Virus record (IMG/VR): IMGVR_UViG_3300030390_000715
Location: 88,754-152,753 of that record
Source: a virus
Direction: 5' to 3' (one strand)
DNA: 64,000 nucleotides
This document shows, one piece after another, positions 24,700 to 40,054 of this stretch. Below the pieces are notes generated by a model. That model worked only from the letters and a program-made list of their open reading frames with translations, was not told where the DNA came from and searched no databases. Position 1 is the stretch's first letter, and each line of letters starts with the position of its first letter. Made by a program: the position numbers and the translations under genes.

Positions 24700-27600
24700 A
24701 TGGCAAACCAATATACTTCCGCTACGTTACCAGGTACTTACGCAGACGATTTTGACCCAACAAACAATTATCATCAAATATTGTTTAATAGTGGTCGCGC
24801 ATTGCAAGCCCGAGAACTTACTCAATTGCAGAGTATCATCTTTGCTGAAATGAGCAGGATGGGCGGCAATTTATACAAAGAAGGTGCGGCTATCTCAGGT
24901 GCTGGCACTAGTATCAATAGCGCATACGATTATGTCAAGATCGCTTCGACAAATGCAGGTGGCGAATTCTCTGCTATACCCGTCGGAACAATATTCTCTG
25001 ATCCTATTACTAATATCAAAGCACAAGTCCTAGAAGTATCGCAAGCAAAAACAGGGCAGTTATTTGATACGTTGTTCATTGAATATATCAATAACGGAAG
25101 CGCAGTCTCAGGAAACACTCCTACTAGATTTGGTGATCAGGTCACACTCTTCGATCAGTCAGGTGGTGGTTATGAATTAATCACAGAAACACCTAACGCT
25201 ACTGGTAAAGGTGTTAAGTTTACTGTCGCAGAAGGCGAGTTCTTTGCTCTAGGTAGATTCGTTAATACTATTGAACAATCTATCATATTATCTCCTTACG
25301 AAAATTCTGCGATTGATACTGTCGTAGGATTTAGAGTCGTTCAAGATATTGTTACTGTCAATGACACTGAAGCATTATATGACAACACAAACGGTGTCGT
25401 TAATACAGCTTCTCCTGGTGCTGATCGCTATCGTATCAGCCTAGTTCTAACTACCGAAGATCAAGTTACTGACTCGCAAACATTCTTGTTCTTAGCGCGA
25501 GTTGAAAACTCAAAGATCAGCGAAGAAATACAAATTCAAGACTCGTTCAATAAAATTAATGATCTACTTTCTATACGCACTAAAGAAGAGTCAGGCGATT
25601 ATGTAGTTAATCCTTTTACTGTTAACGTCGACGATTTTGATAACGGTCTTGATTCTAACCTCGATCTTATTGTATCAGAAGGCACAGCATATATCAATGG
25701 GTACAGAGTAGAAAATCAAAGTTCTGCTAAGTTTAAATTGCCGAGACCCACTGCTACTGAATTAGTTAATAACGATACTATCGGTATTCAGTTAGGCAAC
25801 TATTTCCTATGTAATGTCAACAAAGATATTCCTATTCTTGATTATACAGAAGTGAATCTATACTCTGCTGTCACTGCGGGCGGTTCTGTAGTCGGTACAG
25901 CGAGAGTCCGAGGAATTCAACACTTCAGCGACACCGTACAAAAAGTATTTGTCTATGATGTTACTATGCAACCCGGTCAATCTATTGCCCAGATAAGAAG
26001 TCTAGGTACGGCTTCTACTAATTATTTTGACATAGTTGTCGCCACAAACGGTATTAAATTATACGAGACTGATAATAACGATCTATTATTTGCTACTAAC
26101 AACGCACGACCTTCAGACTTTGATGATATTACAGTAACAGTTCAGAAGTACCAGACGAAAACTGCTGTTGGTAATGCGGTCACATTAGATCAATTACCTG
26201 TTGGTCAATCTTACACACAATCTTCTGAGTGGATATTAAGTACTGCTCAAACCAGTGGTGTGGAATTACCAAGTACTTATGTTGTTACTATAACTAACAG
26301 TGGTCGCGATGCTTCTGTAACGAGTCTCGCGCAAGCTACTGACGATTATAAAATTATCGCGTTTGTGCAAAAGACTGCTACGATAAAGCCTAAGACTGCT
26401 ACTACTTCGGGCACGACTTCATTCACCTCTTCTGTAGATGCGGTATCTGGTGTTACGTATTTTAATCTTGGTCTTCCTGATATCTACTCTGTCGATTCTG
26501 TCAGACAAAACAATAGTGCTGGTAATGATTTATCGTCTATCTTTACAATAGATGATGGTCAACGCGACAATTATTACGGTGACGGTCGCCTAGTACTTAA
26601 AGACGGCTTCGCAGATCCAGGCACAATCTATGTAAACTTCAAGTCGTTCACTCGTGGTGCAGGCGATTTCTATGCGGTCAATTCATACAACGTACCATAT
26701 AGTGATATTCCTAAGCACATAACGAATACTGGTGAAGAGATATCGTTGCATGATGTTATCGACTTTAGACCTGATCAAAATACTGCGGGCACAGTGTCGA
26801 ATATACCTGCGCTTCCTCTCAACGGTTCTTTAATCACTGCTGACGTTAATTATTATTTGCCTCGTGCTGATAAAGTTATCATGACTCATGACGGTGAGAT
26901 CAACATTCTAATGGGGCAACAAGCCCGCGATCCACAATTCAAAGAGACACCTGATAACTCTATGGAATTGTATAAGATCATATTGAATGCAAACACCAAG
27001 GATGAAAATGATCTTGTTGTCGTGCCTACTGCTCAACAACGTGGCTACACGATGAAAGATATCGGTGATCTAGAAAATAAGATCGATGCTATAGAAGAGT
27101 CTACTTCACTTAGTATTTTTGAATTAGAAGCGCGTCTTGATAACGTACTTGACAGTGATGGCGTAATTCGTATCATTAGTGGTCTTCAAGTCAACGAAGC
27201 GACTGATCATACTGGCACCGACACGGGTTCACCTGATCATAGAGCTTCGATAGATCCTGAGAATCGTTTGATTAGACCATCATTCGAAGAAGGTAATACT
27301 AGACTAGTCTACGTACCAAACAATACTGCTGATGCTTTCACAACATCACATTCAAGTACGGGTGTTGTCAAGAAGGGCGATAACATCTATCTTGCGCACG
27401 ATTCCGCAGAATGGACATTCCAGAAACTCGCTTCACGTACTACAAAGATTAATCCTTTTGGATTGATCGACAATGTTGGTACATTAAAACTTTCTCCTTC
27501 TACTGATGAATGGAAAGAGTCTATTCAAGATGCTGTTAAGGTTCTAGCTGGTACTAATAAGCTGTCCGCAAAACAAGCGCATTGCTGGAATAACTGGCAG

Positions 27601-30006
27601 TGGAATTGGGGTGGTCGAACTAACGGATCTAATTTCACGGCTAATGTTAGACGAGTAGTAGCCTCCGAAAGTCTACGTAGAGTGATTGGTGATAGAACAG
27701 TCGATCTTGCCCTTGTACCATGGATTCGATCACGAAAGATTTTCTTCAAGGCGCAAGGCTTAACTCCGAACACTAAGTTTACTCCATTCTTTGACGGTAA
27801 AGATGTCTCTGCATGGTGTCGAGAAGAAGTTGCATTCGTTCAGTGGTCAGATCGAGTAGATGATATTGGTAATAAGAATACATACTCAACAATGTCTGGT
27901 CACCCTGACGGAACTACTGATCTTATTGCTGATGCCAACGGTGAAGTCATTGGGTCATTCTTCATACCTAATATTACACCTAAGTATGCGCTACAACACA
28001 CAAAATATCGTGGAAGATATAATAGATATTATCTACGATTTAGAGCCGGTGCAAGAGAATTTAAACTTCTTGATATCAACGTGAACGACTGGGCTAGTGC
28101 AAACAGTAAAGCATTTACGCATTATACTGCTAAGGGCTTGTTGCCATGGGTATGGTGGAATCCTCTTACGCGCTCAAGAGGCAATAAATATCTTTATCCT
28201 TACAACTACACACGTAAACTTTACTCTGCTAAAGAATTGAAACGTGTACTCGATAGAGTACCTGCGGCTTCTGTTAAGCTAATCGATCCTCAGTTATCTG
28301 GTTTATATGGACCTGATGGTGTTGCACTAGATGGTGCGGCTCTACAGACATTAGCAAACAATACTCAAATGTCGAAAGTTTTGTCCGATTATATTAACAT
28401 TAACTTTAATCAGTTTGCAGACATTTTACCTGCTACAGTCCAAGCGGCTACGATGAATCCATTAGCGCAGACTTTTCATGTTAGTAACGATGTTGGTGTT
28501 ACATTGACTAAGATTGATTTATTCTTCAAGTCAAAGCCAACGACTACTGGCTTACCTGTATCTGTTCATATTCGTCCGGTAGAGAATGGCAAGCCGTCAA
28601 CTTCAGACATTATACCTGATTCACATGTATATGTTAATAGTGCTGATGTTGTCGCAACATCTAATACGAATCAATTGGTTACTATTCAGGGTGCACCAAC
28701 ACCTTTCGTATTTGAAGAGCCACTTTACTTATCGCCTGGGCAAGACTACGCTATTGTGGTCACTTCGCAATCTACAGAGTACGAGCTTTACACTGCAAAG
28801 ACTCGCGAACCAGTAATCAATTCGAAGGCTAGATCGATCACAACACAGTCTGCGCCAGGAGCAATGTTCTTACCTCAGAATGGTGTTAACTGGACTGATT
28901 CGAAAGATCAAGACTTAATGTTCAAGCTAACACGCGCTAAGTTTGGTACGAACGGTGGAGCTAACGGCAGTCTTGTATTGAAAAATGCTGATGTTCCTGC
29001 TAGACTATTGAGTGAGAACCCATTACAAACTACAATTAGTGATCATAAAATATATGTTCGTCACGCCAATCACGGTCTACAGCCAGGAGATGGTGCTAGA
29101 CTAGATAGTTGTGCCGAAATAGGTGGATTCAGTTCTGCGCAGTTAAGCGGTAGTTTCGAAGTTATTGATGTCGATGCATACGGATATCGTTTCGAGATTG
29201 ATCCAAGTAATAGAGTCACAGCGACTACTACTGAAGTTGGTGGTGGTGAGAAATGTCTTTCTTTAGGAAACACTAACTTTTCTGTCGCTAATCCTCATAT
29301 CGAATCGATAATACCTAACACGACTTCGATTGATGTCTCTGCACAATTTACTTCTGGTAAGTCTGTATCTGGTTCTGAAACACGATTCGTAAGAGATACG
29401 AAGTATACGAGAATCACGCCTAAGACAAACACTGATTTTGAGAAGGTCAATACGTTATATAACTCTTATTCTCAAGACTCAGATATTGGTGCGGGCATTG
29501 CCTCTGCTTACTTCAAGGTTGATATGAAATCAGCAAGCGATTTTGTTTCTCCTATCATTGATTTACAGCGTTCTTCGTTAATAACTGTTAACAACTTGAT
29601 CGATGATCCGTCAGTTACACCGCATATCTATCCTGTCGCTGAAACATCTGCAACGGGTAGTACTACAGTAGCGTCTCATATTAATAGCCCTGTAGTATTG
29701 CAAGAGACTGCTGTTGGTATTCAAATAAAGACTGACGCGTCCGTTCACTCGGAATGCAACTTTAGATTAGCCTATCGTGTTTGTTCTTCTGATCAAGATA
29801 TTCAGAACACACCGTGGGTAGTTCAAAATCCTACTGACGCTATCGTAAAGGATGGAAGTGTGCGCTCCGTTGAATTCTTAGTCGGTGATAAGAATGGCAC
29901 AATACCTCCATTTAGTCAAGTTCAGACTAAGTTCATTCTAGAAAGTAAGAATAGTGGTAAGCCAGTAACCATAGGCAATAGTGTGGTCAAGTACTTAGCG
30001 GTATGA
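24700..30006 (+). CDS. Large virion structural protein (DUF4815/VrlC-like)
   Basis: YADDFD..NYHQILF..GRALQARELTQLQ, PGADRY, RTKEESGDYVV and PLAQTF. Confidence 0.8.
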   Translation: MANQYTSATLPGTYADDFDPTNNYHQILFNSGRALQARELTQLQSIIFAEMSRMGGNLYKEGAAISGAGTSINSAYDYVKIASTNAGGEFSAIPVGTIFSDPITNIKAQVLEVSQAKTGQLFDTLFIEYINNGSAVSGNTPTRFGDQVTLFDQSGGGYELITETPNATGKGVKFTVAEGEFFALGRFVNTIEQSIILSPYENSAIDTVVGFRVVQDIVTVNDTEALYDNTNGVVNTASPGADRYRISLVLTTEDQVTDSQTFLFLARVENSKISEEIQIQDSFNKINDLLSIRTKEESGDYVVNPFTVNVDDFDNGLDSNLDLIVSEGTAYINGYRVENQSSAKFKLPRPTATELVNNDTIGIQLGNYFLCNVNKDIPILDYTEVNLYSAVTAGGSVVGTARVRGIQHFSDTVQKVFVYDVTMQPGQSIAQIRSLGTASTNYFDIVVATNGIKLYETDNNDLLFATNNARPSDFDDITVTVQKYQTKTAVGNAVTLDQLPVGQSYTQSSEWILSTAQTSGVELPSTYVVTITNSGRDASVTSLAQATDDYKIIAFVQKTATIKPKTATTSGTTSFTSSVDAVSGVTYFNLGLPDIYSVDSVRQNNSAGNDLSSIFTIDDGQRDNYYGDGRLVLKDGFADPGTIYVNFKSFTRGAGDFYAVNSYNVPYSDIPKHITNTGEEISLHDVIDFRPDQNTAGTVSNIPALPLNGSLITADVNYYLPRADKVIMTHDGEINILMGQQARDPQFKETPDNSMELYKIILNANTKDENDLVVVPTAQQRGYTMKDIGDLENKIDAIEESTSLSIFELEARLDNVLDSDGVIRIISGLQVNEATDHTGTDTGSPDHRASIDPENRLIRPSFEEGNTRLVYVPNNTADAFTTSHSSTGVVKKGDNIYLAHDSAEWTFQKLASRTTKINPFGLIDNVGTLKLSPSTDEWKESIQDAVKVLAGTNKLSAKQAHCWNNWQWNWGGRTNGSNFTANVRRVVASESLRRVIGDRTVDLALVPWIRSRKIFFKAQGLTPNTKFTPFFDGKDVSAWCREEVAFVQWSDRVDDIGNKNTYSTMSGHPDGTTDLIADANGEVIGSFFIPNITPKYALQHTKYRGRYNRYYLRFRAGAREFKLLDINVNDWASANSKAFTHYTAKGLLPWVWWNPLTRSRGNKYLYPYNYTRKLYSAKELKRVLDRVPAASVKLIDPQLSGLYGPDGVALDGAALQTLANNTQMSKVLSDYININFNQFADILPATVQAATMNPLAQTFHVSNDVGVTLTKIDLFFKSKPTTTGLPVSVHIRPVENGKPSTSDIIPDSHVYVNSADVVATSNTNQLVTIQGAPTPFVFEEPLYLSPGQDYAIVVTSQSTEYELYTAKTREPVINSKARSITTQSAPGAMFLPQNGVNWTDSKDQDLMFKLTRAKFGTNGGANGSLVLKNADVPARLLSENPLQTTISDHKIYVRHANHGLQPGDGARLDSCAEIGGFSSAQLSGSFEVIDVDAYGYRFEIDPSNRVTATTTEVGGGEKCLSLGNTNFSVANPHIESIIPNTTSIDVSAQFTSGKSVSGSETRFVRDTKYTRITPKTNTDFEKVNTLYNSYSQDSDIGAGIASAYFKVDMKSASDFVSPIIDLQRSSLITVNNLIDDPSVTPHIYPVAETSATGSTTVASHINSPVVLQETAVGIQIKTDASVHSECNFRLAYRVCSSDQDIQNTPWVVQNPTDAIVKDGSVRSVEFLVGDKNGTIPPFSQVQTKFILESKNSGKPVTIGNSVVKYLAV

Positions 30007-30239
30007 TCAATTATCGTCACATAAAAGTCGAGGGGGTTCCTAGTTTAGTTCGAGATGTTGAAACAAACGCTATACTAAGTGTAGATGCAAAAGCAATCGA
30101 ACTAGCTAGAACCCAAAAAAGAATACGAGCCGCAAAGAAAATTGAACATACAGCCTTAGAGAATAAGGTCGATAGTCTCCAAAAAGACATAGAGGATATT
30201 AAAAAAATACTAGAATTGTTAGTCTCTGATAACGTATAA
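30003..30239 (+). CDS. Small coiled-coil protein, conserved after DUF4815 genes
   Basis: KVEG..LVRD..TNAIL and a C-terminal heptad pattern. Confidence 0.65.
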   Translation: MINYRHIKVEGVPSLVRDVETNAILSVDAKAIELARTQKRIRAAKKIEHTALENKVDSLQKDIEDIKKILELLVSDNV

Positions 30240-30242
30240 ATA
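30235..30242 (+). promoter_or_regulatory. T4-type late promoter
   Basis: TATAAATA upstream of the 2480-aa ORF. Confidence 0.75.
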
Positions 30243-30277: not shown

Positions 30278-33200
30278 ATGTCTCTACCCTTAAAACATCT
30301 TGGCAATGGCGCGCTTCAAGAATTAGCTTCCGTTGATCTTGATTCCATTGCTTATAGGGCGGGTGTTCATCTAGGTAAAATGGGCGCAGAAGATGCTTCG
30401 GCTCTAACTACAACCTCTACTGCTAACACTCTAGTCGGTTCAATCGATGATACGTTTTACGAAACCACTATAGGTTCTACTCCAGGAACAACATGGACAG
30501 TTAATCTAGCTGTCGATCATATATCGGACACAACTACCGGTGTTCATACTGCGACATTCACACAATTAAACGAATTTCCCTCTCCTATCTTTGTTGGCGA
30601 TACTGTAAGAGTTATTGTTACAGGTGATGCTCAGACAGGTTTTGAAGAGATCGCTCACGAATTGTCCGAGTCTGGTACAGCACTCTTCAGTACAGAAAGT
30701 GTAACAACAACACCGTCCGCGTCTATCATCGAAGATACTCGCGTCGAATGGGAAGATTTTGTTTATGGTCTGACAGGCACATTTATCTCACAGTTTGAGG
30801 TTAAGGTGACTCAACCTGGAGTAATAAACTTTTCGTTGAATGTGAGTACCACTGACTTAAACAACACAACTAATAATACCGCTAACGCGTCTATATCGTT
30901 TGCGACTGTCGATGTTGAAGAAACATTACCGCCAGAAGCGACTAGCGTTCAATATGACTTATATCAATCCAATGCTGGTATTGTTACGCAAAGCGTACAC
31001 AAAAAGAACCCTGTTTTCTGGACCAGATATCTAACGCCAAATGGTATCAAAGAAATGTCTGATGCAGAACTTGATTCGTTCTGCGAAAAATTAGTCATAC
31101 GAATTATGGCAAACGAATTGCCAGGCACATACAGATTAAATGCTAACAGCCCAGGCTCTGATTGGGTTCAATTTGTTAGCAACGTATTTACAGATACACG
31201 CGCAGACGGATCGACTACTGACTACTCGATATGGCTAAGACAGTCAGGTACTGCGCCTACTCAAGTTAATCTTGTATATCCGAAGCGCGTCTTGGGTGAA
31301 TACGCAGGATTAAATGAGTATACAGACAATCAAGTCGAATTTACTTTTGGCGAAAGAGTTAAGAAAGCCATTGCCACTACCGGTATTGGTAAATATGTAC
31401 TAAGATCATCTACTCAAGGTGCGCCTACTGAAACAGGAACGTGGGTTGCTCGTGGTAGTGCGATTGATACTAGACTAGAATATTATTATGACCCAGGTTA
31501 TGTTTCAACACCTGCATATTCAAGTCAATATGTAGAAGATTATGCAACCGACTATGTTGACACGTATGAAGGTAATTATGAGCCTACATATACTGGCGAT
31601 TTCACTGCTGACTTTGAAGGTACATACGAAGCGGAATATCTAGGCAACTATACGCCAGATTATGACACAGGATATGATGCCGAATACACTCAAAACTTTG
31701 AAGCTGATTATCAAAGCCAGTATGAGCAAGAATATCTTGGGGACTACGTTAGCCAATATGTACCCACATACGACGGTGCTATTTTTAACGAACAGTACAG
31801 TACGGATTATCTAGCCGCTGATTTTATAGGCGACTACATTAGCGATTATACAGCCGACGCATACGATTCAGGATATACTTCGGACTATCAAATTGATTAC
31901 ATTGGTTCATACACTGGTCAATACACTAGTAACTATGACAGCGTATATGAAGATATCAATTACGCTACAGATTACAGCGTAGATTATACAGGGCAATATG
32001 AGTCTGTATATGCGACCACGTATGAGAATGACTACACTAGTAATTATAGTTCCCAGTACACTTCTCAATATTCGGATGAATACGAGTCTGTATATGAAGA
32101 TATAGAATACTTGACCGATTACATCTCGGTCTATAATAGCGACTATACTACTGACTATCTAAGCGATTATGATAATACAGCATATAGTACGATTTTCGAA
32201 ACTACCTACGCCACAAATTATTCTACTGGCTTTGAATCTACCTTTATAGGCACGTATGATGACACTGACTATGCGGCTACCTTTTCTGGCGATTATGTCT
32301 CTAATTATGATAACTCATTCGTAAGTCCGGAGTATCAGAGTGTTTACGAGGGTAGCCCATACTCTGTAGACTTTGTTGGAGATTACACATCCACTTATGA
32401 TTCTTCGTTCGTACAGGATTTTGTAGGCACGTATGATGACACTGACTATGTGACTAACTTCGTCGGTGATTATGCTAGTCAATATATCAGTCAGTTTAGC
32501 CAAGACTTTGCTGTCGATTATAATACAGACGATTACGTGGTAGACTTTGTTGGTGATTATACGTCATCTTACGATGCTTCGTTCGCACAGGACTTCGTTG
32601 GAAATTATAGTGACACTGACTATGCGACTACCTTCGTCGGTGATTATGCTAGTCAATATATCAATCAGTTTAGTCAGAACTTTGCGGCAGTGTTTGATGG
32701 TTCTCAATATACTACTGTTTTTGAATCGAACTATGTGGGTGATTATGCAGGATCATTCGAAGGCAACTTCAACAACATATTCGAAGGTGCAAGTTATGTT
32801 TCTACCTTTGCCAACTCTTATGCTAGTCAATATACGTCACAGTTCAGTCAAGCATTCTCGGCTAACTATGATAACACAACATACACTGGTGACTTTAATG
32901 AGACTTATTCTGGCGATTACATTGGTCTGTATAGCGCGTCTTTCGCAGGCAATTATGAGCGAACTACATATGAAACGCAATTTAGCGCGTCATACACCGG
33001 CAACTATGTGGGTCTTTTCTCACAGACTTTCTTAGGAACATATGACAGTCAAGGATACACTGCTGACTTTACAGCAAACTATACTGGCGACTACAGCGGT
33101 ACGTTCGGAACTACGTTTCTTGGAAATTATGATAGTCAACAATTTAACGCTATCTTCGAGAGTACTTACACTGGTGATTATGACGGACAATTTAGTGCTA

Positions 33201-36200
33201 CGTTTATCGGTGAATACGATAGAGTAAACTACAACACAAACTTCGTAGGCGATTACGTCGGTGATTATAGCGGAGCATTTAGTGCTACGTTTGTAGGCAA
33301 TTACGAAAGATTGACGTACCAAGGCGAGTATGTTTCTACGTACACTGGTGATTATACCGGAACATTTAATGCCAACTTTAACGCTACTTACGATGGAGCT
33401 AATTACGCCTCTCAATATACTGGCGGTTATACTGGCGCTCCGTCTGAAACCTTTAGTGCTAACTTTATAGGCGAATACCAGCGAATTGATTACACTAGCC
33501 AATATACTGGTCAATACGTATCACAGATAAGCGAATCGTTCGGTGCTTCATATACGGGTGTCTACGAAAGAACCAATTACACTTCTGTTTACACTGGTGG
33601 TTATACTGGACAAGTAAACGAAAACGAGGATAGCACTAACGAAGAGTCGTTCGCTCGTGACACTTACGTCTCACAATACACTGGCGGATACACTGGTGGT
33701 TATGCAGGGCTATACGAACGCGCAGTGAATGAATCGTTTTCAGGTGCCTCATTCACTGGTGATTATACAGGGCAGTATGTTGGTCAAGTTGGCGAAACCA
33801 TAATTGATAATATCGATGAATCGTTCAATGTGAACTATACAGGCGAATATACAGGTCAGTATGTTGGTCAAGTTGGCGAAACCATAGGCGATGCTATCAA
33901 CGAATCATTCAATGTAAATTACACTGGTGATTATACAGGGCAGTATGTTGGTCAAGTTGGTGAAACCGAGCAACAAACATTTACAGCAACTTTTAACTCT
34001 GCTAATAACTACAATACGCAATATACAGGGCAGTATATTGGTCAAGTAACCGAGAATGAAAGTACAACGGAACAACAATCTTATACAGGCGCATATACAG
34101 GCGATTACACAGGTCAGTATGTTGGTCAAGTAAGTGAGACAGAACAAACAGCTATCAACGAAGGTTTTGTTACCACATATATTGGAACATATACTGGTGG
34201 TTATGAACGCGCACAAACAGAAAATGAAGACCAAACACAATCGACCACATACACGGGCGGTTATGTACGCGCACAAAACACTACTAATCAAGATACGGTG
34301 ACTGATGCCGTAGGGGAAGTTTTCAATGGAAACTTCCAAGGAAACTACGTTAGTACCTCTACAACTTTTTACAATGGACCAAATGCTCATACAACAAGTA
34401 CGATGGTTGCTGACGAATATGCTGATCTAAATGATTACAACCTTTCGGGTACAGCCGGTTATTCCTCTGTTTCTTCTACCCTTGGTGGTAGTTTCAGCCC
34501 AACTTCACTTAATCTTGGCATGGGATCTGTAAGGGCTCTATTTCACAACTGGACTACGATTTTTACTTCTGGTGTTGGTGTTAAAACATCGCAAGGTTTA
34601 ACGCTTCAACTCAACGCTGGTAGTAATCCCACAAACTGGCAATCGATGCACCTTGTAGCACCCGGTGGCGCGGTTACGATTGTCAATAGAACGTCTATGT
34701 CTTATACGCTGTCAGGTGGAATTGCGACTTTCTCTATATCTTCCTCGGTTGCCCCCGGACCCGTCTTCTTTGGTCAAAATGAATCTTGGACTGTTAAGTT
34801 TATTAATCCCTTTGGCAACACAGCGGGATATGCCGGTGGAGGTGGCAGTTCAACTTTCATAGGAGATTACGTAAGTTCATACATAGGCTCTTATTTAGGC
34901 GCATACACGGGCTCATACACAGGGCAATATACAGGAACAGTGAACGAGAATTTCACGGGTGATTATGTCGGGCAGTATTCGGGTCAATATGTTGGTGTTG
35001 TTCAAGAGGGCATAGATGAAGGCTTTGCGTCTACATACACTGGTCAATACACTGGTGGCTATACAGGTTTATACGAACGAGCGCAGAACCAGTCGTTTGC
35101 TACGGTTCAATCATCGACATATACCGGTGGCTATACAGGGCAATATACAGGCTTATACGAACGAGCGCAGAATGAAAACTTCGCGGTCAACTATAACAGT
35201 TCATACATAGGCAACTACACTGGTGGTTATGCAGGGCTATATGAACGAGCGCAGAGTGAAACTTTCGCGGCTGTTTATGCTGGAACGTACACAGGTCAAT
35301 ACACTGGTGGCTATTCAGGATTATATGAACGAGCGCAGAGTGAAACTTTCGCGGCTGTCTATGCCGGCACATACACTGGACAATACTCTGGTGGTTATGC
35401 AGGGCTATATGAACGCGCAGTGAATGAAACTTTCAGTGTTGCTTACGCGGCTGATTATATTGGTCAGTATGTTGGTCAAATAGCTGAAGTAGAACAGACT
35501 ACAGAACAAGAAACATTCTCCGCGTCTTATATTGGAAATTACATTGGTGGTTATACTGGTCAGTACTTAGGGCAATATGAGCGTACACAACAACAAAACT
35601 TTTCCGCTAACTACTTAGCCTCGTTTGAAGGTGCATTTAACGCAACATATGTGGGGCTATACGAACGCGCTATTGATGAAACATTTAGTGCTAACTACCT
35701 CGGAACATTCGCGGGCGATTATGTCTCACAATATACTGGAGCATACGAATCTGTAGATAGCGAAACATTTACGGCTAACTTCACTGGCTCTTATAATAGC
35801 ACATATTTGTCATCGTATGACGGTACCTTTGTTGCTAACTTTAATCAAACATTCATTGACCAATACACCGGAACATTCCTTGGTGATTATCTTTCGCAGT
35901 ATACAGGCGGATTCTCAGAGTCCTTCGCCGGAGACTACGCTTCTGATTATCTCGGAACATTCGCGGGCGATTATCTTTCGCAGTACACGGGCGTCTTTAC
36001 ACAAAACTTTGTAGGCACATACACTTCGGGCTATACAAGAACATTCGACGGCGACTACGTTTCACAATACGAAGGTAACTTCTCGGCTGTATACACAGGA
36101 AACTTTACTGCACAATACACCGGAACATTCGACGGCAACTACGTTTCACAATATGAAGGTAACTTCTCGGCTAATTTTGGAGCGCAGTTTAGCGCACAGT

Positions 36201-37720
36201 ATCTTGGAACATTCATAGGTGATTATGCTTCGAGCTACGAAGGTGCGTTTGGTGTCTCATATTCTGGAAACTTTACTGAAGACTACGTTGACACGTATAC
36301 ATCCCAGTATACATCCCAGTATACATCTGATTTTGAAGCCATTTACGTCGGTGATTTTGAAGGAGCTTATCAAGCTTCCTTTGAAGGTAACTTTGCGGCT
36401 CAATACGAAGGATCTTTTGCGCAGACCTTCACAGGATCATACGATACACAGTACACTGGATCTTACATATCACAGTATTTGTCGACATACGAATCAGCTT
36501 TCACAGCTATATTCGGTAGTGATTACACGTCCGAGTATCTAGGAACATTCGACGGTAACTATGTCTCAGCCTATGCCAATGTGTTCAGCCAGACATTCTC
36601 GGGCAATTATGTTTCTAGTTATCTCGGAACATTCACTGGTCAATATACGGGTGAGTACGAGTCAGACTATACAAGCTCATTCGCAGGAGATTATGCATCC
36701 GAGTATCTTGGAACATTCGACGGTAACTATGTCTCAGCCTATGCCAATGTGTTCAGCCAGACATTCTCGGGCAATTATGTAACTGATTATATTGATTCTT
36801 ATCAGTCTGCTTATATTACTACCTATGACAGTACATTCACATCTAACTTTAGTGGTGAATACACGTCCGAGTATCTCGGAACATTCGATGGTGATTATAC
36901 TTCGGAATATGCTAGTATATACCTGAACGAATATGTCGGTACTTACACATCTGAATACACTGACACTTACACTGGCAACTTCTTAGATACATACGAAGGA
37001 ACTTTCGCTGATGCGTATGAAACTGGTTATACTGGCACATATGCTTCCGAGTATCAAACCAATTACGGATCGGAGTTTATAAGTGAATATGCTAGTGATT
37101 ATACCACTGATTACAATACCGATTATGCTACGCAATTCGAAGGCACGTTCATTGGTCAATATGAGAATGAGTACCTAGGCACTTACGAAAGCACCTTCAT
37201 AGAGAATTACGAGTCGACTGAATCATACATTGCATATGGTACTTCCTATGCGTCCGAATATGTCTCTGACTACAATCCTACATACGAAGGTGATTTCTTA
37301 GGAAGCTATGAGCCTAGCTACGAGACAACTTACAATTCAGAATATACAGGCACATATGACGCTGACGCTGTGGATGAAAGTTACGATTCATTGTATGTTC
37401 GTGATCTTTATTCTTCTGATTATACGACTGATTATATCGAACAAGTTTACGTGTCTGGTTATGTGACTAGCTACGAAGGTCTTGATAGCGAAGAGTCATA
37501 CGATACGACATATGATGGCGCTGTTTACACCTCGAGCTATGCCTCTGACTATCAAGATGATGACATTATCGAGAGTTACGATGACACGGCTTACACCGCA
37601 CTCTATAATACCGATTACTCGATTGACTATATAACTGATACAGCATACGGTACTGGAGGACACTTACGAGACATTCCTGTATCGATTGAAACTTATACAT
37701 TATACGTGAGGGTAGCATGA
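30278..37720 (+). CDS. Giant Tyr/Phe-periodic (Yxxx)n acidic protein, putative virion fibre/appendage
   Basis: Late promoter; ~400-aa N-terminal domains, then ~2050 aa with an aromatic residue at about every 4th position, interrupted by a ~160-aa central non-repetitive domain. Confidence 0.8.
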   Translation: MSLPLKHLGNGALQELASVDLDSIAYRAGVHLGKMGAEDASALTTTSTANTLVGSIDDTFYETTIGSTPGTTWTVNLAVDHISDTTTGVHTATFTQLNEFPSPIFVGDTVRVIVTGDAQTGFEEIAHELSESGTALFSTESVTTTPSASIIEDTRVEWEDFVYGLTGTFISQFEVKVTQPGVINFSLNVSTTDLNNTTNNTANASISFATVDVEETLPPEATSVQYDLYQSNAGIVTQSVHKKNPVFWTRYLTPNGIKEMSDAELDSFCEKLVIRIMANELPGTYRLNANSPGSDWVQFVSNVFTDTRADGSTTDYSIWLRQSGTAPTQVNLVYPKRVLGEYAGLNEYTDNQVEFTFGERVKKAIATTGIGKYVLRSSTQGAPTETGTWVARGSAIDTRLEYYYDPGYVSTPAYSSQYVEDYATDYVDTYEGNYEPTYTGDFTADFEGTYEAEYLGNYTPDYDTGYDAEYTQNFEADYQSQYEQEYLGDYVSQYVPTYDGAIFNEQYSTDYLAADFIGDYISDYTADAYDSGYTSDYQIDYIGSYTGQYTSNYDSVYEDINYATDYSVDYTGQYESVYATTYENDYTSNYSSQYTSQYSDEYESVYEDIEYLTDYISVYNSDYTTDYLSDYDNTAYSTIFETTYATNYSTGFESTFIGTYDDTDYAATFSGDYVSNYDNSFVSPEYQSVYEGSPYSVDFVGDYTSTYDSSFVQDFVGTYDDTDYVTNFVGDYASQYISQFSQDFAVDYNTDDYVVDFVGDYTSSYDASFAQDFVGNYSDTDYATTFVGDYASQYINQFSQNFAAVFDGSQYTTVFESNYVGDYAGSFEGNFNNIFEGASYVSTFANSYASQYTSQFSQAFSANYDNTTYTGDFNETYSGDYIGLYSASFAGNYERTTYETQFSASYTGNYVGLFSQTFLGTYDSQGYTADFTANYTGDYSGTFGTTFLGNYDSQQFNAIFESTYTGDYDGQFSATFIGEYDRVNYNTNFVGDYVGDYSGAFSATFVGNYERLTYQGEYVSTYTGDYTGTFNANFNATYDGANYASQYTGGYTGAPSETFSANFIGEYQRIDYTSQYTGQYVSQISESFGASYTGVYERTNYTSVYTGGYTGQVNENEDSTNEESFARDTYVSQYTGGYTGGYAGLYERAVNESFSGASFTGDYTGQYVGQVGETIIDNIDESFNVNYTGEYTGQYVGQVGETIGDAINESFNVNYTGDYTGQYVGQVGETEQQTFTATFNSANNYNTQYTGQYIGQVTENESTTEQQSYTGAYTGDYTGQYVGQVSETEQTAINEGFVTTYIGTYTGGYERAQTENEDQTQSTTYTGGYVRAQNTTNQDTVTDAVGEVFNGNFQGNYVSTSTTFYNGPNAHTTSTMVADEYADLNDYNLSGTAGYSSVSSTLGGSFSPTSLNLGMGSVRALFHNWTTIFTSGVGVKTSQGLTLQLNAGSNPTNWQSMHLVAPGGAVTIVNRTSMSYTLSGGIATFSISSSVAPGPVFFGQNESWTVKFINPFGNTAGYAGGGGSSTFIGDYVSSYIGSYLGAYTGSYTGQYTGTVNENFTGDYVGQYSGQYVGVVQEGIDEGFASTYTGQYTGGYTGLYERAQNQSFATVQSSTYTGGYTGQYTGLYERAQNENFAVNYNSSYIGNYTGGYAGLYERAQSETFAAVYAGTYTGQYTGGYSGLYERAQSETFAAVYAGTYTGQYSGGYAGLYERAVNETFSVAYAADYIGQYVGQIAEVEQTTEQETFSASYIGNYIGGYTGQYLGQYERTQQQNFSANYLASFEGAFNATYVGLYERAIDETFSANYLGTFAGDYVSQYTGAYESVDSETFTANFTGSYNSTYLSSYDGTFVANFNQTFIDQYTGTFLGDYLSQYTGGFSESFAGDYASDYLGTFAGDYLSQYTGVFTQNFVGTYTSGYTRTFDGDYVSQYEGNFSAVYTGNFTAQYTGTFDGNYVSQYEGNFSANFGAQFSAQYLGTFIGDYASSYEGAFGVSYSGNFTEDYVDTYTSQYTSQYTSDFEAIYVGDFEGAYQASFEGNFAAQYEGSFAQTFTGSYDTQYTGSYISQYLSTYESAFTAIFGSDYTSEYLGTFDGNYVSAYANVFSQTFSGNYVSSYLGTFTGQYTGEYESDYTSSFAGDYASEYLGTFDGNYVSAYANVFSQTFSGNYVTDYIDSYQSAYITTYDSTFTSNFSGEYTSEYLGTFDGDYTSEYASIYLNEYVGTYTSEYTDTYTGNFLDTYEGTFADAYETGYTGTYASEYQTNYGSEFISEYASDYTTDYNTDYATQFEGTFIGQYENEYLGTYESTFIENYESTESYIAYGTSYASEYVSDYNPTYEGDFLGSYEPSYETTYNSEYTGTYDADAVDESYDSLYVRDLYSSDYTTDYIEQVYVSGYVTSYEGLDSEESYDTTYDGAVYTSSYASDYQDDDIIESYDDTAYTALYNTDYSIDYITDTAYGTGGHLRDIPVSIETYTLYVRVA
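36542..36780 (+). repeat. 71-bp exact direct repeat inside the giant ORF
   Basis: GGAACATTCGACGGTAAC...GGCAATTATGT at 36542-36612 and 36710-36780. Confidence 0.85.
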
Positions 37721-38166
37721 GTTTACAAGTAGAATATTTAGATAACGCATACTGGGAAAATAAAGATAAGACCCAGCTAAAATGCATTCGATTGAAGCCC
37801 GTTGAAGGCGGAAAGGGTGGTCGCAAGAAAGATGTCTTATTATTAAATAAAGGTGATCCAGAATATGACATTGTAGTGTCTAGGTGGGGTGTTCCTCATA
37901 TCGATAAAAACACTCAAGAACGCGCTGACTCTAAGGATAAAAAAGATCGAGAGAATCGCGCAGTCCACGAACAGCGCAAAAAATCTGCTGAGTTAGAGCA
38001 ACTATTCAATGCTAAACTTCAGACGAGTGAAATACCTGAAATCAAAAATTCTACAAACAAAGCTATGAGATCGAAGATAAGACGCGCAAAGAGTGTGATC
38101 GAAATGCAAGCCCTAGCCGCTCTGCTGATTGGAATGGAATTAGGCTACATTGAGGTTAAAAAATGA
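37717..38166 (+). CDS. Hypothetical basic protein translationally coupled to the giant ORF
   Basis: ATGA overlap; Lys/Arg-rich and probably helical. Confidence 0.7.
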   Translation: MSLQVEYLDNAYWENKDKTQLKCIRLKPVEGGKGGRKKDVLLLNKGDPEYDIVVSRWGVPHIDKNTQERADSKDKKDRENRAVHEQRKKSAELEQLFNAKLQTSEIPEIKNSTNKAMRSKIRRAKSVIEMQALAALLIGMELGYIEVKK

Positions 38167-38969
38167 GAGATGTGATTGACACAGTAAAAAAATGGCTACG
38201 CATTACTCCACCTACGACCCCACCTACGATTGGATATGTTATTGTTGCATCTCGAAAGAAGTTCTTTTATGTTTCTGCAATTAATCTTATGGAATCAATC
38301 AAAGATCATTATCCCGAAGCTAAGATCACTCTAGTCGTTGAAGAAAGATTCCTTGATGGTAACGAGAAGATAGCGGATAACATTATTTTCTGCGATGATC
38401 ATGCACGAGCTAAGTTGATAGGAATGGCTAAATCACCTTATGATATTACGTTTTATGTCGATGCAGATATAGAATGCGAACACGAAGATATCTCTACAAT
38501 CTTTGATAAACTCGATGGACATGATATCATGTTCACTGGTCTACCTGCTGATAGACATTACTGTTACGCAGAAGTATTCTTTGACGGTGCAACAAAGGCT
38601 GACGGTACTAAAGCAGGGTTCGAACTTTGCGGAGGTGTCTGTCTTTATGATATGAGAAAGCCACTTGTTCGTGAATTCATGAACGATTGGTATAATCTAA
38701 CTGTAGCTCAGTATGCTAGACTCTGGTGGCCAAGGAACGAAGATGGCACTGAAGACCTCAAAAATTATCCTGCTACACTAAAAAGATGGGACCAATTCTC
38801 ACTTTGGTGGTTAACTAACAAAGAGCCAAAATACAAAGACCTCAAAGTAGGTATATTAGAAGATGATGCTCGATGGAATTACTACTCTAAGTATAAGTAC
38901 GACCATAATAAAGAGCCTGTAGTATTGAGACACTACTCCTCTTCAGGCGCTAAATCTCTGGAGTTTTAA
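38163..38969 (+). CDS. Glycosyltransferase-like protein (GT-A fold)
   Basis: GYVIVAS..., SPYDITFYVDAD (DxD), GGVCLY, WDQFSLW, RWN and a C-terminal His. Confidence 0.7.
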   Translation: MRDVIDTVKKWLRITPPTTPPTIGYVIVASRKKFFYVSAINLMESIKDHYPEAKITLVVEERFLDGNEKIADNIIFCDDHARAKLIGMAKSPYDITFYVDADIECEHEDISTIFDKLDGHDIMFTGLPADRHYCYAEVFFDGATKADGTKAGFELCGGVCLYDMRKPLVREFMNDWYNLTVAQYARLWWPRNEDGTEDLKNYPATLKRWDQFSLWWLTNKEPKYKDLKVGILEDDARWNYYSKYKYDHNKEPVVLRHYSSSGAKSLEF

Positions 38970-38972
38970 ACT

Positions 38973-39647
38973 ATGATGAAAAATATACCTTTAAACGACT
39001 TTGCAATAGAATTGTTAGACGAAGCATTGTGGTTTACAAAAGAAGAAAATTACACCGCTGTAATACCTACGAAGATGAACGATCTCGATAAAGCTGATTA
39101 TTATACGGGTGATGAATATTTCGAGAAAATAAAAGCGATGGGTAGTTCTCATGATGGATTTCCAGAATTCATCGCCTGTTATTCTTTTGGTCAAGGTATT
39201 AGATTCGATAATCATAATCCAAAAATTCAAAGGAAGATCGCTGAAGTAACCGAAAGACATAGTGCGTTAATAACTAATATTCAGACTACTTTCAATCTTA
39301 AAAAGAACGCTCTGTTTTCGATTTATCCTCCGGGTGGCTTTATCTCTTGGCATAATAATGCTAACGCGTCGGCTTATAACTTTATATTTACTTACAGCGA
39401 AACAGGTGATGGATGGTGGAAGCACTTGGATCCTGTTACTAAAGAAATGGTTCATATACCTGATGTTAAGGGATGGCAATGTAAAGCTGGACACTTCGGC
39501 TCATACGCTGACGGAGAAGACTCACTAGTATATCATGCCGCAAAGAATGGTAGTACAGGATTACGAATGACCATTGCGTTCACGTTAGATCGATCTGATA
39601 CGTCACTATCTCTTCAGGACTGGATAATAGAAGATATTCAAGCTTAG
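38973..39647 (+). CDS. 2OG-Fe(II) oxygenase-like (double-stranded beta-helix) protein
   Basis: YPPGGFISWHNN...YHAA...RMTIAF follows the H-x-(D/N)...H...R arrangement. Confidence 0.6.
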   Translation: MMKNIPLNDFAIELLDEALWFTKEENYTAVIPTKMNDLDKADYYTGDEYFEKIKAMGSSHDGFPEFIACYSFGQGIRFDNHNPKIQRKIAEVTERHSALITNIQTTFNLKKNALFSIYPPGGFISWHNNANASAYNFIFTYSETGDGWWKHLDPVTKEMVHIPDVKGWQCKAGHFGSYADGEDSLVYHAAKNGSTGLRMTIAFTLDRSDTSLSLQDWIIEDIQA

Positions 39648-39653
39648 GAATCG

Positions 39654-39661
39654 TATAAATA
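39654..39661 (+). promoter_or_regulatory. T4-type late promoter
   Basis: TATAAATA. Confidence 0.75.
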
Positions 39662-39694
39662 ACCTTATAAGATAATCGAAAGGATATTATACAA

Positions 39695-40054
39695 ATGGCT
39701 ACGCATTACGAAGTCCTTCAAATAAATCAAGGCTCTGACACTTCGATAGAGTTGGAGCTTGTAAATGTGGACAATTCTAAAAAGGACTTGACAGGGTTTA
39801 GTGTTGAAGCTAAACTCAGTTCAAGCTATTCTCAGCCTGATTCTGATAAGACTAGTTTCTTGTCTATAATATCCTCTCCCTCTACAAGCGGTATCGTCAA
39901 TCTTTCGTTGACTAACGAGCAAACGAGCATACTTAATCCTAAGAAGCGTTTCGTCTATGATGTTGAGATATCACACGTTGATAGTGCTACGGGCAATACA
40001 ATTATCGAGAGGGTTCTAGAAGGTATCCTTACAGTAACTCCGGCGGTGACTTAA
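39695..40054 (+). CDS. Small Ig-like virion protein (BppU-N-like)
   Basis: INQGSD...DLTGF...YDVEI...RVLEGILTVTPAVT pattern. Confidence 0.6.
   Translation: MATHYEVLQINQGSDTSIELELVNVDNSKKDLTGFSVEAKLSSSYSQPDSDKTSFLSIISSPSTSGIVNLSLTNEQTSILNPKKRFVYDVEISHVDSATGNTIIERVLEGILTVTPAVT

Follow-up and report, generated by a model that had tools for sequence, protein, structure and literature searches.

The stretch of viral DNA analysed here, referred to as the window, comprises 64,000 nucleotides of the IMG/VR virus record IMGVR_UViG_3300030390_000715 (positions 88,754 to 152,753 of that record). It contains a gene for a putative virion fibre protein (30278..37720, plus strand), a single open frame of 2,480 residues followed by a stop codon; all parts of the gene described below lie on the same strand. 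No family was found for the whole 2,480-residue protein in PHROGs (E ≤ 0.01) or in Pfam, where there was a chance hit at most.

The N-terminal region of the protein consists of three related units. Unit 1 (residues 4–230) is discontinuous. Its first part (residues 4–60; 30287..30457), a strand, a helix and a strand ending in DTF, matches profile U1h with 43.1 bits and is separated from the closing strand TSVQYDLYQ (residues 222–230; 30941..30967) by an insert in the turn, predicted to be an all-beta sandwich (residues 61–221; 30458..30940). The closing strand aligns with that of unit 2 in hhalign. Unit 2 (residues 244–322; 31007..31243) is complete, with a tight turn (DTR-ADGS) and the closing strand DYSIWLR, and scores 71.7 bits with profile U2h (residues 244–308) and 9.5 bits with U2t (residues 311–322). 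Unit 3 begins with residues 330–399 (31265..31474), which end in DTR and match profile U3h with 85.9 bits over residues 340–399. It is followed by an outgoing arm (residues 400–1390; 31475..34447) with an aromatic residue at every fourth position and a 29-residue super-repeat, a central non-repeat segment, presumed to be a distal tip domain, in which the counts of Tyr, Asp and Glu fall (residues 1391–1510; 34448..34807), and a returning arm with the same aromatic spacing and a 28-residue super-repeat (residues 1511–2469; 34808..37684). The chain ends with IETYTLYVRVA, the putative closing strand of unit 3 (residues 2470–2480; 37685..37717; 20.2 bits with profile CT).

An earlier note on this DNA had proposed that the repeat region is inserted into one beta-turn of a thrice-repeated base domain, a proposal that is supported by the results below. 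The strings that it quoted are all found where it placed them in the 2,480-residue protein: GALQELASVDLD (residues 11–22), DDTFYE (57–62) and SVQYDLYQ (223–230) in unit 1; GIKEMSDAELD (256–266), FTDTRADGS (304–312) and DYSIWLR (315–321) in unit 2; and GLNEYTDNQVE (344–354), AIDTRLEY (395–402) and IETYTLYVRVA (2470–2480), the final residues of the protein, in unit 3. These positions confirm the short turn of unit 2 and the interrupted turns of the other two units, with a gap of 162 residues in unit 1 and of 2,070 residues, reaching to the last residues of the chain, in unit 3.

The relationship among the units, which the same note had suggested should be examined by profile alignment, was assessed with profiles built from 77 relatives and compared pairwise by hhalign. 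The comparison of units 2 and 3 gave the highest score (38.7, probability 93.9, E 1.6e-7), followed by units 1 and 2 (35.3, probability 90.9, E 1.2e-6) and units 1 and 3 (30.1, probability 80.2, E 1.4e-5). Reversed targets scored 6.2–12.1, and column shuffles (30 per pair) had a mean of about 10 and a maximum of 17.8, so that none of 30 reached the real score in any of the three pairs. By these profiles, the three base units are homologous beyond chance. The alignment between units 1 and 2 continues through the closing strand, and the alignments of either unit with unit 3 end at the D-T-R of unit 3, which is its break point. In the 2,480-residue protein, the second-best match of U3h falls on unit 2 (residues 255–293, 6.0 bits). 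Among 334 six-frame open reading frames (ORFs) of at least 50 residues in the window, the unit profiles match the fibre gene only (E-values of 6e-13, 6.6e-22 and 4e-27 for the units and 7.1e-6 for the end piece), and all other ORFs have E ≥ 0.3 with the unit and end profiles.

Relatives of the base were identified with phmmer, using residues 1–407 as query against 1.84 billion representatives (50% clustering), which gave 286 representatives at E ≤ 1e-3. The base domain was found in only one of 50,697 records of sequenced phage collections, and full-text literature searches listed no paper describing the fibre family. The features that define membership of the family, namely the three-unit base, the conserved closing strand and arms with an aromatic period of four, are all present in the 2,480-residue protein. 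A near-invariant motif, xETYTLYVRxA, forms the C-terminal end in 112 of 154 relatives with lengths of 381–3,756 residues. In a second search, restricted to proteins of 218–695 residues, the motif was the C-terminal end in 94 of 114; it was absent from all eight proteins shorter than 363 residues in that search, which look like fragments. Within the motif, Y2476 does not vary, and 106–109 of 110 proteins share each of T2472, Y2473, T2474 and L2475.

The conserved end looks in sequence like the closing strand of a unit, a likeness that amounts to roughly one observation. A nine-column matrix derived from the closing strand of unit 2 alone was applied to the whole sequence beyond unit 3 (median 480 positions). 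In 86 of 106 proteins, the 2,480-residue protein included, its top-scoring match ends two residues before the C-terminus, and for several proteins second-best hits of the U2t and U1t profiles also coincide with the end. Four relatives carry the motif internally, with 412 residues after it in P0005, 272 in P0020 and 25 in both P0007 and P0008; it is therefore a structural strand rather than a terminal tag. The extensions of P0005 (residues 1826–2238) and P0020 (the last 272 residues) represent an extra domain, similar between the two proteins, that follows the internal closing strand.

The return of the C-terminus to unit 3, also proposed in the earlier note, is supported by two sets of structure predictions. 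A model of an entire relative of 397 residues (P0064) was obtained with AlphaFold2 from 77 aligned sequences, with a mean per-residue confidence (pLDDT) of 79.8 and a predicted template modelling score (pTM) of 0.71. The base is mostly predicted at pLDDT 93–98, and the last 18 residues (380–397) at 97–98. The order of elements is alike in each unit. In unit 3, a predicted strand (residues 238–272) continues past the D-T-R and another (residues 359–395) returns, forming an out-and-back pair. A two-chain model of the 2,480-residue protein itself, consisting of residues 1–430 and residues 2441–2480, was calculated in three runs with a custom alignment. The interface score ipSAE was 0.76, 0.81 and 0.83 in these runs, compared with 0.00 for the best of three controls, and the runs share at least 65% of contacts. 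The confident interface is formed by unit-3 residues 369–379 and 381–405 and C-terminal residues 2463–2480, and also takes in unit-2 residues 274, 277–278, 284–287, 304 and 318. The pairs with the least predicted error are 372/373 with 2477/2478, 389/390 with 2476–2478, and 392 with 2475–2477. The C-terminal end is thus predicted to be seated between residues 370–376 and 388–392 of unit 3, and the model supports binding of the end to this unit.

The two arms have a highly regular sequence. The outgoing arm contains 211 aromatic residues, with 166 of the 210 gaps between them equal to four and 25 equal to five, and the gaps of five recur every 29 residues. The returning arm contains 215 aromatic residues, with 190 of 214 gaps equal to four. 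In the regions where the super-repeats were defined (residues 660–1160, 32255–33757; and residues 1820–2320, 35735–37237), the outgoing repeat of 29 residues comprises one gap of five and six of four, and the returning repeat of 28 residues comprises seven gaps of four. Both super-repeats therefore correspond to seven rungs, with one additional residue per repeat in the outgoing arm; this residue possibly forms a regularly spaced beta-bulge, which would make the ribbon twist or coil. The position two residues after the aromatic is Gly, Ser, Ala or Thr in 137 of 166 outgoing and 165 of 190 returning rungs, so that one face would alternate large and small side chains and the other would be polar. 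Counted from the base, a zone of skipped rungs begins at rung 158 (residue 651) in the outgoing and at rung 151 (residue 638) in the returning arm. If fully extended, at an assumed 3.3 Å per residue, an arm would span about 0.3 micrometres.

The compositional mirror centre of the protein is at residue 1422, and the midpoint at residue 1434. Among 15 long relatives, the mirror centre is within 60 residues of the midpoint in seven and within 101 residues in 11, in a test that is weak because the direct tandem-repeat correlation often matches that of the mirror. The 120-residue tip segment has no similar stretch in the other 153 family proteins (BLAST, self-match only), and its comparison with the protein Atlas gave a best score of 0.75, which is a lead only.

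Comparison with homologues supports the further proposal of the earlier note that the turn of unit 3 is an extensible loop. In the 115 of 154 proteins for which all four pieces could be located, the unit-3 loop varies from 94 to 3,339 residues (median 488). Unit 1 has a short gap (25–59 residues) in 106 of these proteins and one of 160–313 residues in nine, including the 2,480-residue protein. The insert of the latter is predicted to fold as an all-beta sandwich similar to immunoglobulin (Ig) or cohesin domains, with a pLDDT of 90.0 and the two unit-1 strands flanking it. None of the 115 proteins has an inserted domain in the turn of unit 2. The role as a display platform suggested in the note is supported only in part, by the extra domain that nine of the 115 proteins carry in the turn of unit 1. 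A closed prism with a tight unit-3 turn was not found; the shortest complete members (363–381 residues) have loops of 94–100 residues.

The gap between units 2 and 3 is 13–39 residues in 114 of the 115 proteins. The exception, P0153 (265 residues), was considered as an insertion into the turn of unit 2 and rejected; the extra residues follow the closing strand of unit 2 and therefore lie in the linker. Residues 180–430 of P0153 contain two copies of a segment with a putative cupredoxin-like motif (YYYC..H..MG), which may resemble that of copper proteins.

Structural comparisons of the base hint at a likeness to the MABP domain. This domain, a type-I beta-prism, is built from three homologous segments and shows internal three-fold symmetry (PMC2881412); in MPEG1/perforin-2 it carries an elongated beta-hairpin (PMC2881412, PMC6753088). 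The five best structural matches of the P0064 model among 48,161 chains are all MABP-type prism domains, and since the aligned range of the model is 40/41–397, these matches reach the C-terminal strand. Two features would be shared with these prisms: a drawn-out hairpin, as predicted here, and three homologous segments in tandem, the latter found in the base with hhalign scores of 30.1–38.7 against a shuffle maximum of 17.8. In contrast to the MABP prisms, each phage unit adds a helix and two short strands, and the hairpin is far longer, with 2,070 residues here and up to 3,339 in a relative. Foldseek returned nothing at E ≤ 0.001 for the P0064 model against the PDB or BFVD, a sequence-profile search of the PDB gave one chance-level hit (E 0.49), and no consistent Pfam family was found in any of the 31 proteins scanned (30 relatives and the base, E ≤ 1).

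The fibre also has features in common with the tip of gp37 of phage T4. This tip is described as a collar, a six-stranded antiparallel needle formed by three chains, and a head (PMC7291167, PMC9659904), with the specificity region 932–965 flanked by conserved residues 812–931 and 966–1026 (PMC9659904). Both would have a globular proximal domain with antiparallel strands running out to a receptor-binding head and back, and a variable specificity part in the middle of the sequence between conserved stretches. The return of the C-terminus to the proximal globular domain is also common to both, by prediction only in the fibre described here. The gp37 tip differs in being formed by three chains of two strands each over an out-and-back of about 215 residues, whereas the fibre here would be a single chain with a 2,070-residue loop. 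The gp37 needle has iron-binding His-x-His motifs along its length; the 1,950 arm residues of the fibre contain two histidines and no such motif. Homology with gp37 was not detected in sequence (no Pfam or PHROGs hit), and no match of the base fold to the gp37 collar was among the structural matches listed. The best BFVD row for the P0064 model is a T4 gp37 fragment, but with an E-value of 0.025 and a TM score of 0.08. The fibre resembles both the MABP prisms and the gp37 tip and is a demonstrable member of neither group.

The closest counterpart in a sequenced phage is WJE88074.1 of phage C48C1 (OQ984149.1, Kyanoviridae), a hypothetical protein of 3,347 residues that has the three-unit base and the same end (...ETYTLYVRVA). 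It differs from the 2,480-residue protein in having only a short turn in unit 1, arms that are rich in Arg, Ser and Thr rather than acidic, and several globular inserts along the loop. A full-text search on the name of the phage found no related publication.

The source record (152,753 bases, about 91% complete) has a T4-like myovirus gene set with thymidylate synthase, baseplate hub and wedge proteins, sheath, tube, portal and terminase. The portal protein is closest to that of phage C48C1 (63.6% identity), followed by Methylophilales phage Melnitz (50.7%), Pelagibacter phage Mosig (50.5%) and cyanomyophages (49.8%), and is thus at much the same distance from the Methylophilales and Pelagibacter myophages as from the cyanomyophages. 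No psbA match was found in the 152,753-base record, yet its nearest sequenced relative, C48C1, is filed under Kyanoviridae.

Upstream of the fibre gene are baseplate wedge genes (phrog_219, phrog_438) and, directly 5′, the gene of a 1,768-residue DUF4815 protein (24700–30006, plus strand; Pfam E 4e-55, phrog_358 E 2e-282), whose counterpart in C48C1 is 31–33% identical. The start of a 78-residue, helical-looking ORF (30003–30239, plus strand) overlaps the stop of the DUF4815 gene (ATGA). This ORF shares 37% identity (E 9e-12) with a 76-residue 'virion structural protein' at the equivalent position in C48C1. On the downstream side, small ORFs of 149, 268 and 224 residues are followed by a fibre-assembly-like ORF (phrog_3304), the four together occupying 37717–40054 on the plus strand, and by a 1,643-residue tail fibre protein. 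The 149-residue ORF overlaps the stop of the fibre gene. The four ORFs also follow the fibre gene of C48C1, in unchanged order, with identities of 34%, 58% and 38% for the small ORFs and 54% for the fibre-assembly-like ORF. No Pfam family was found for the downstream ORFs; the 268-residue ORF gave no more than a hint of Glycos_transf_2 below the threshold (E 0.11).

A motif resembling T4-type late promoters, TATAAATA, is present at 30235..30242 on the plus strand, 36 bases before the start codon of the fibre gene. Motifs of this type have ten matches in the window, with 6.0 expected, and the count alone is therefore not significant. Nine of the ten matches are on the plus strand, and several (12280, 20771, 30235, 39654, 50695 and 59529) lie closely 5′ of gene starts.

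It is likely that the gene encodes a virion fibre of an uncultured marine T4-like myovirus and that both ends of the chain lie in one small base domain. This domain consists of three tandem homologous units, each with a short strand pair, a helix and a beta-hairpin (D-T-R/F, turn, x-Y-x-L/I-Y/W-x-R), most likely packed round a pseudo-threefold axis in a compact prism-like domain. The hairpin turn would be only four residues in unit 2 and, in the clade of the 2,480-residue protein, would hold the Ig/cohesin-like sandwich of 160 residues in unit 1. The hairpin strands of unit 3 are predicted to extend outward as a very long antiparallel pair, with an arm of 991 residues out, the non-repeat tip of 120 residues and an arm of 959 residues back, after which the last 11 residues would return to the base and supply the strand that unit 3 lacks. 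If the end re-enters unit 3 in this way, the whole fibre would be a 2,070-residue insertion in one beta-turn. The homology of the units, the invariant end with its likeness to the closing strand of unit 2, the variation in loop length and the shared seven-rung period of the arms are seen in the sequences themselves; the docking of the end, the ribbon and the prism-like packing are predictions. The position of the gene further suggests that the base may be the proximal end, anchored on the baseplate, that the fast-changing tip may be the distal end in contact with the host, and that the length may be tuned by gain or loss of matched pieces in both arms.

Several observations weigh against this interpretation. 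All structural claims come from predictions, with strand pairing read from the DSSP string and a contact list. The P0064 model represents a relative with 38% identity over units 2 and 3 rather than the 2,480-residue protein itself, and its tip (residues 270–360) is predicted at pLDDT below 50. In the two-chain model, the partner chain has a low pLDDT of 46–50, so that its own fold is uncertain, and the calibration of the ipSAE mark (reached by 116 of 157 solved complexes and two of 215 mismatched pairs) is only rough here, a custom alignment having been used. The model would also fit docking within one chain and between chains alike. The matrix from unit 2 has its best match elsewhere in 20 of 106 proteins, the 3,756-residue P0004 among them. 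Its scores are low (0.9 bits for the 2,480-residue protein), the proteins scanned had been selected for carrying the end motif, and because the end is invariant, the 86 hits count as about one. In the 2,480-residue protein the correlation is higher for a direct shift of 55 residues (0.26) than for the mirror (0.21), and the mirror centre is more than 300 residues from the midpoint in four of the 15 long relatives. Covariation between the end and the base is weak (Mann-Whitney p 0.03 for predicted contact columns, relatedness not corrected). Column 2470 covaries most with R399, and the high-ranking partners of column 2479 include columns 268, 272 and 392. As the contact enrichment is weak and the units do not differ, covariation was not counted as support. 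Finally, gene order is the sole basis for the presumed presence in the virion, site of attachment and receptor binding.

The ambiguity of the two-chain model bears on an arrangement in which the end of one molecule completes unit 3 of another copy. The molecules would then form head-to-tail chains or an antiparallel dimer that has a base at both ends, with arms paired between molecules. The strand was scored as a separate chain in that model and fits such an exchange equally well; matched rung counts and seven-rung repeats are also expected of an antiparallel dimer, and the aromatic face of the ribbon suggests some self-association. However, the single-chain model of P0064 folds back to its own base, and both ends of the chain are predicted with high confidence. 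For loops of 94–100 residues, with arms of about 45 residues, closure within the chain is the simplest solution, and a fibre anchored at both ends would presumably have no obvious role beside baseplate genes. This arrangement is therefore regarded as improbable. It is more improbable still that the conserved end is a separate signal, such as a peptide for docking to a chaperone or the baseplate, with a coincidental likeness to the closing strands and a unit 3 that is one strand shorter. In favour of a signal, the motif is far more strongly conserved than the strands that close units 1 and 2, which could reflect an additional constraint; there is a tail-fibre-assembly-like ORF downstream; and the end alone compares weakly with unit 2 in hhalign (P 0.0024, probability 12%). 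A separate signal is at odds with the choice of the end by the unit-2 matrix in most proteins, the second-best hits of U2t and U1t, the placement of the end in unit 3 by both models, and the internal motif in P0005, P0020, P0007 and P0008.

Two further alternatives concern the fold of the base. The units might be arranged as beads on a string with no pseudo-threefold base, in which case the topology proposed for the chain would still hold. The pTM of 0.71 and the high pLDDT of most of the base in the P0064 model, the predicted contacts of the end with unit 2 as well as unit 3, and the three-fold prism domains that make up the five best structural matches weigh against such an arrangement, which is very improbable. 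Conversely, the base may be a true relative of the MABP beta-prisms that does not trimerise, a single chain bearing a two-stranded tyrosine/glycine ladder ribbon of tunable length, an idea that is rather unlikely. If it is correct, the fibre would be an extreme case of a general trick, in which one turn of a three-fold prism is drawn out into a binding hairpin. The arms would range from about 45 to about 1,650 residues, reaching about 0.3 micrometres here if fully extended, with one beta-bulge per seven rungs in the outgoing arm only, and the proteins would constitute a novel fibre class among phages and offer a natural scaffold for single-layer beta-ribbons of great length.

To our knowledge, characterised phage fibres are parallel trimers that grow by the addition of modules along the chain. 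If the whole fibre is instead a loop in one beta-turn of the base, both ends of the chain would be at the anchor and the variable, host-contacting part would lie in the middle of the gene. Such a design would account for the conservation of the first 400 and the last 11 residues among proteins that range from 363 to 3,756 residues, and predicts that length changes only by matched changes in both arms. It would also place the specificity element mid-gene rather than at the C-terminus, which may guide annotators and engineers, and the regular ribbon of tyrosine and small residues may be of interest to protein design. Since the family is common in aquatic metagenomes and nearly absent from sequenced phages, it would represent a widespread host-recognition device of uncultured marine phages that is still undescribed.

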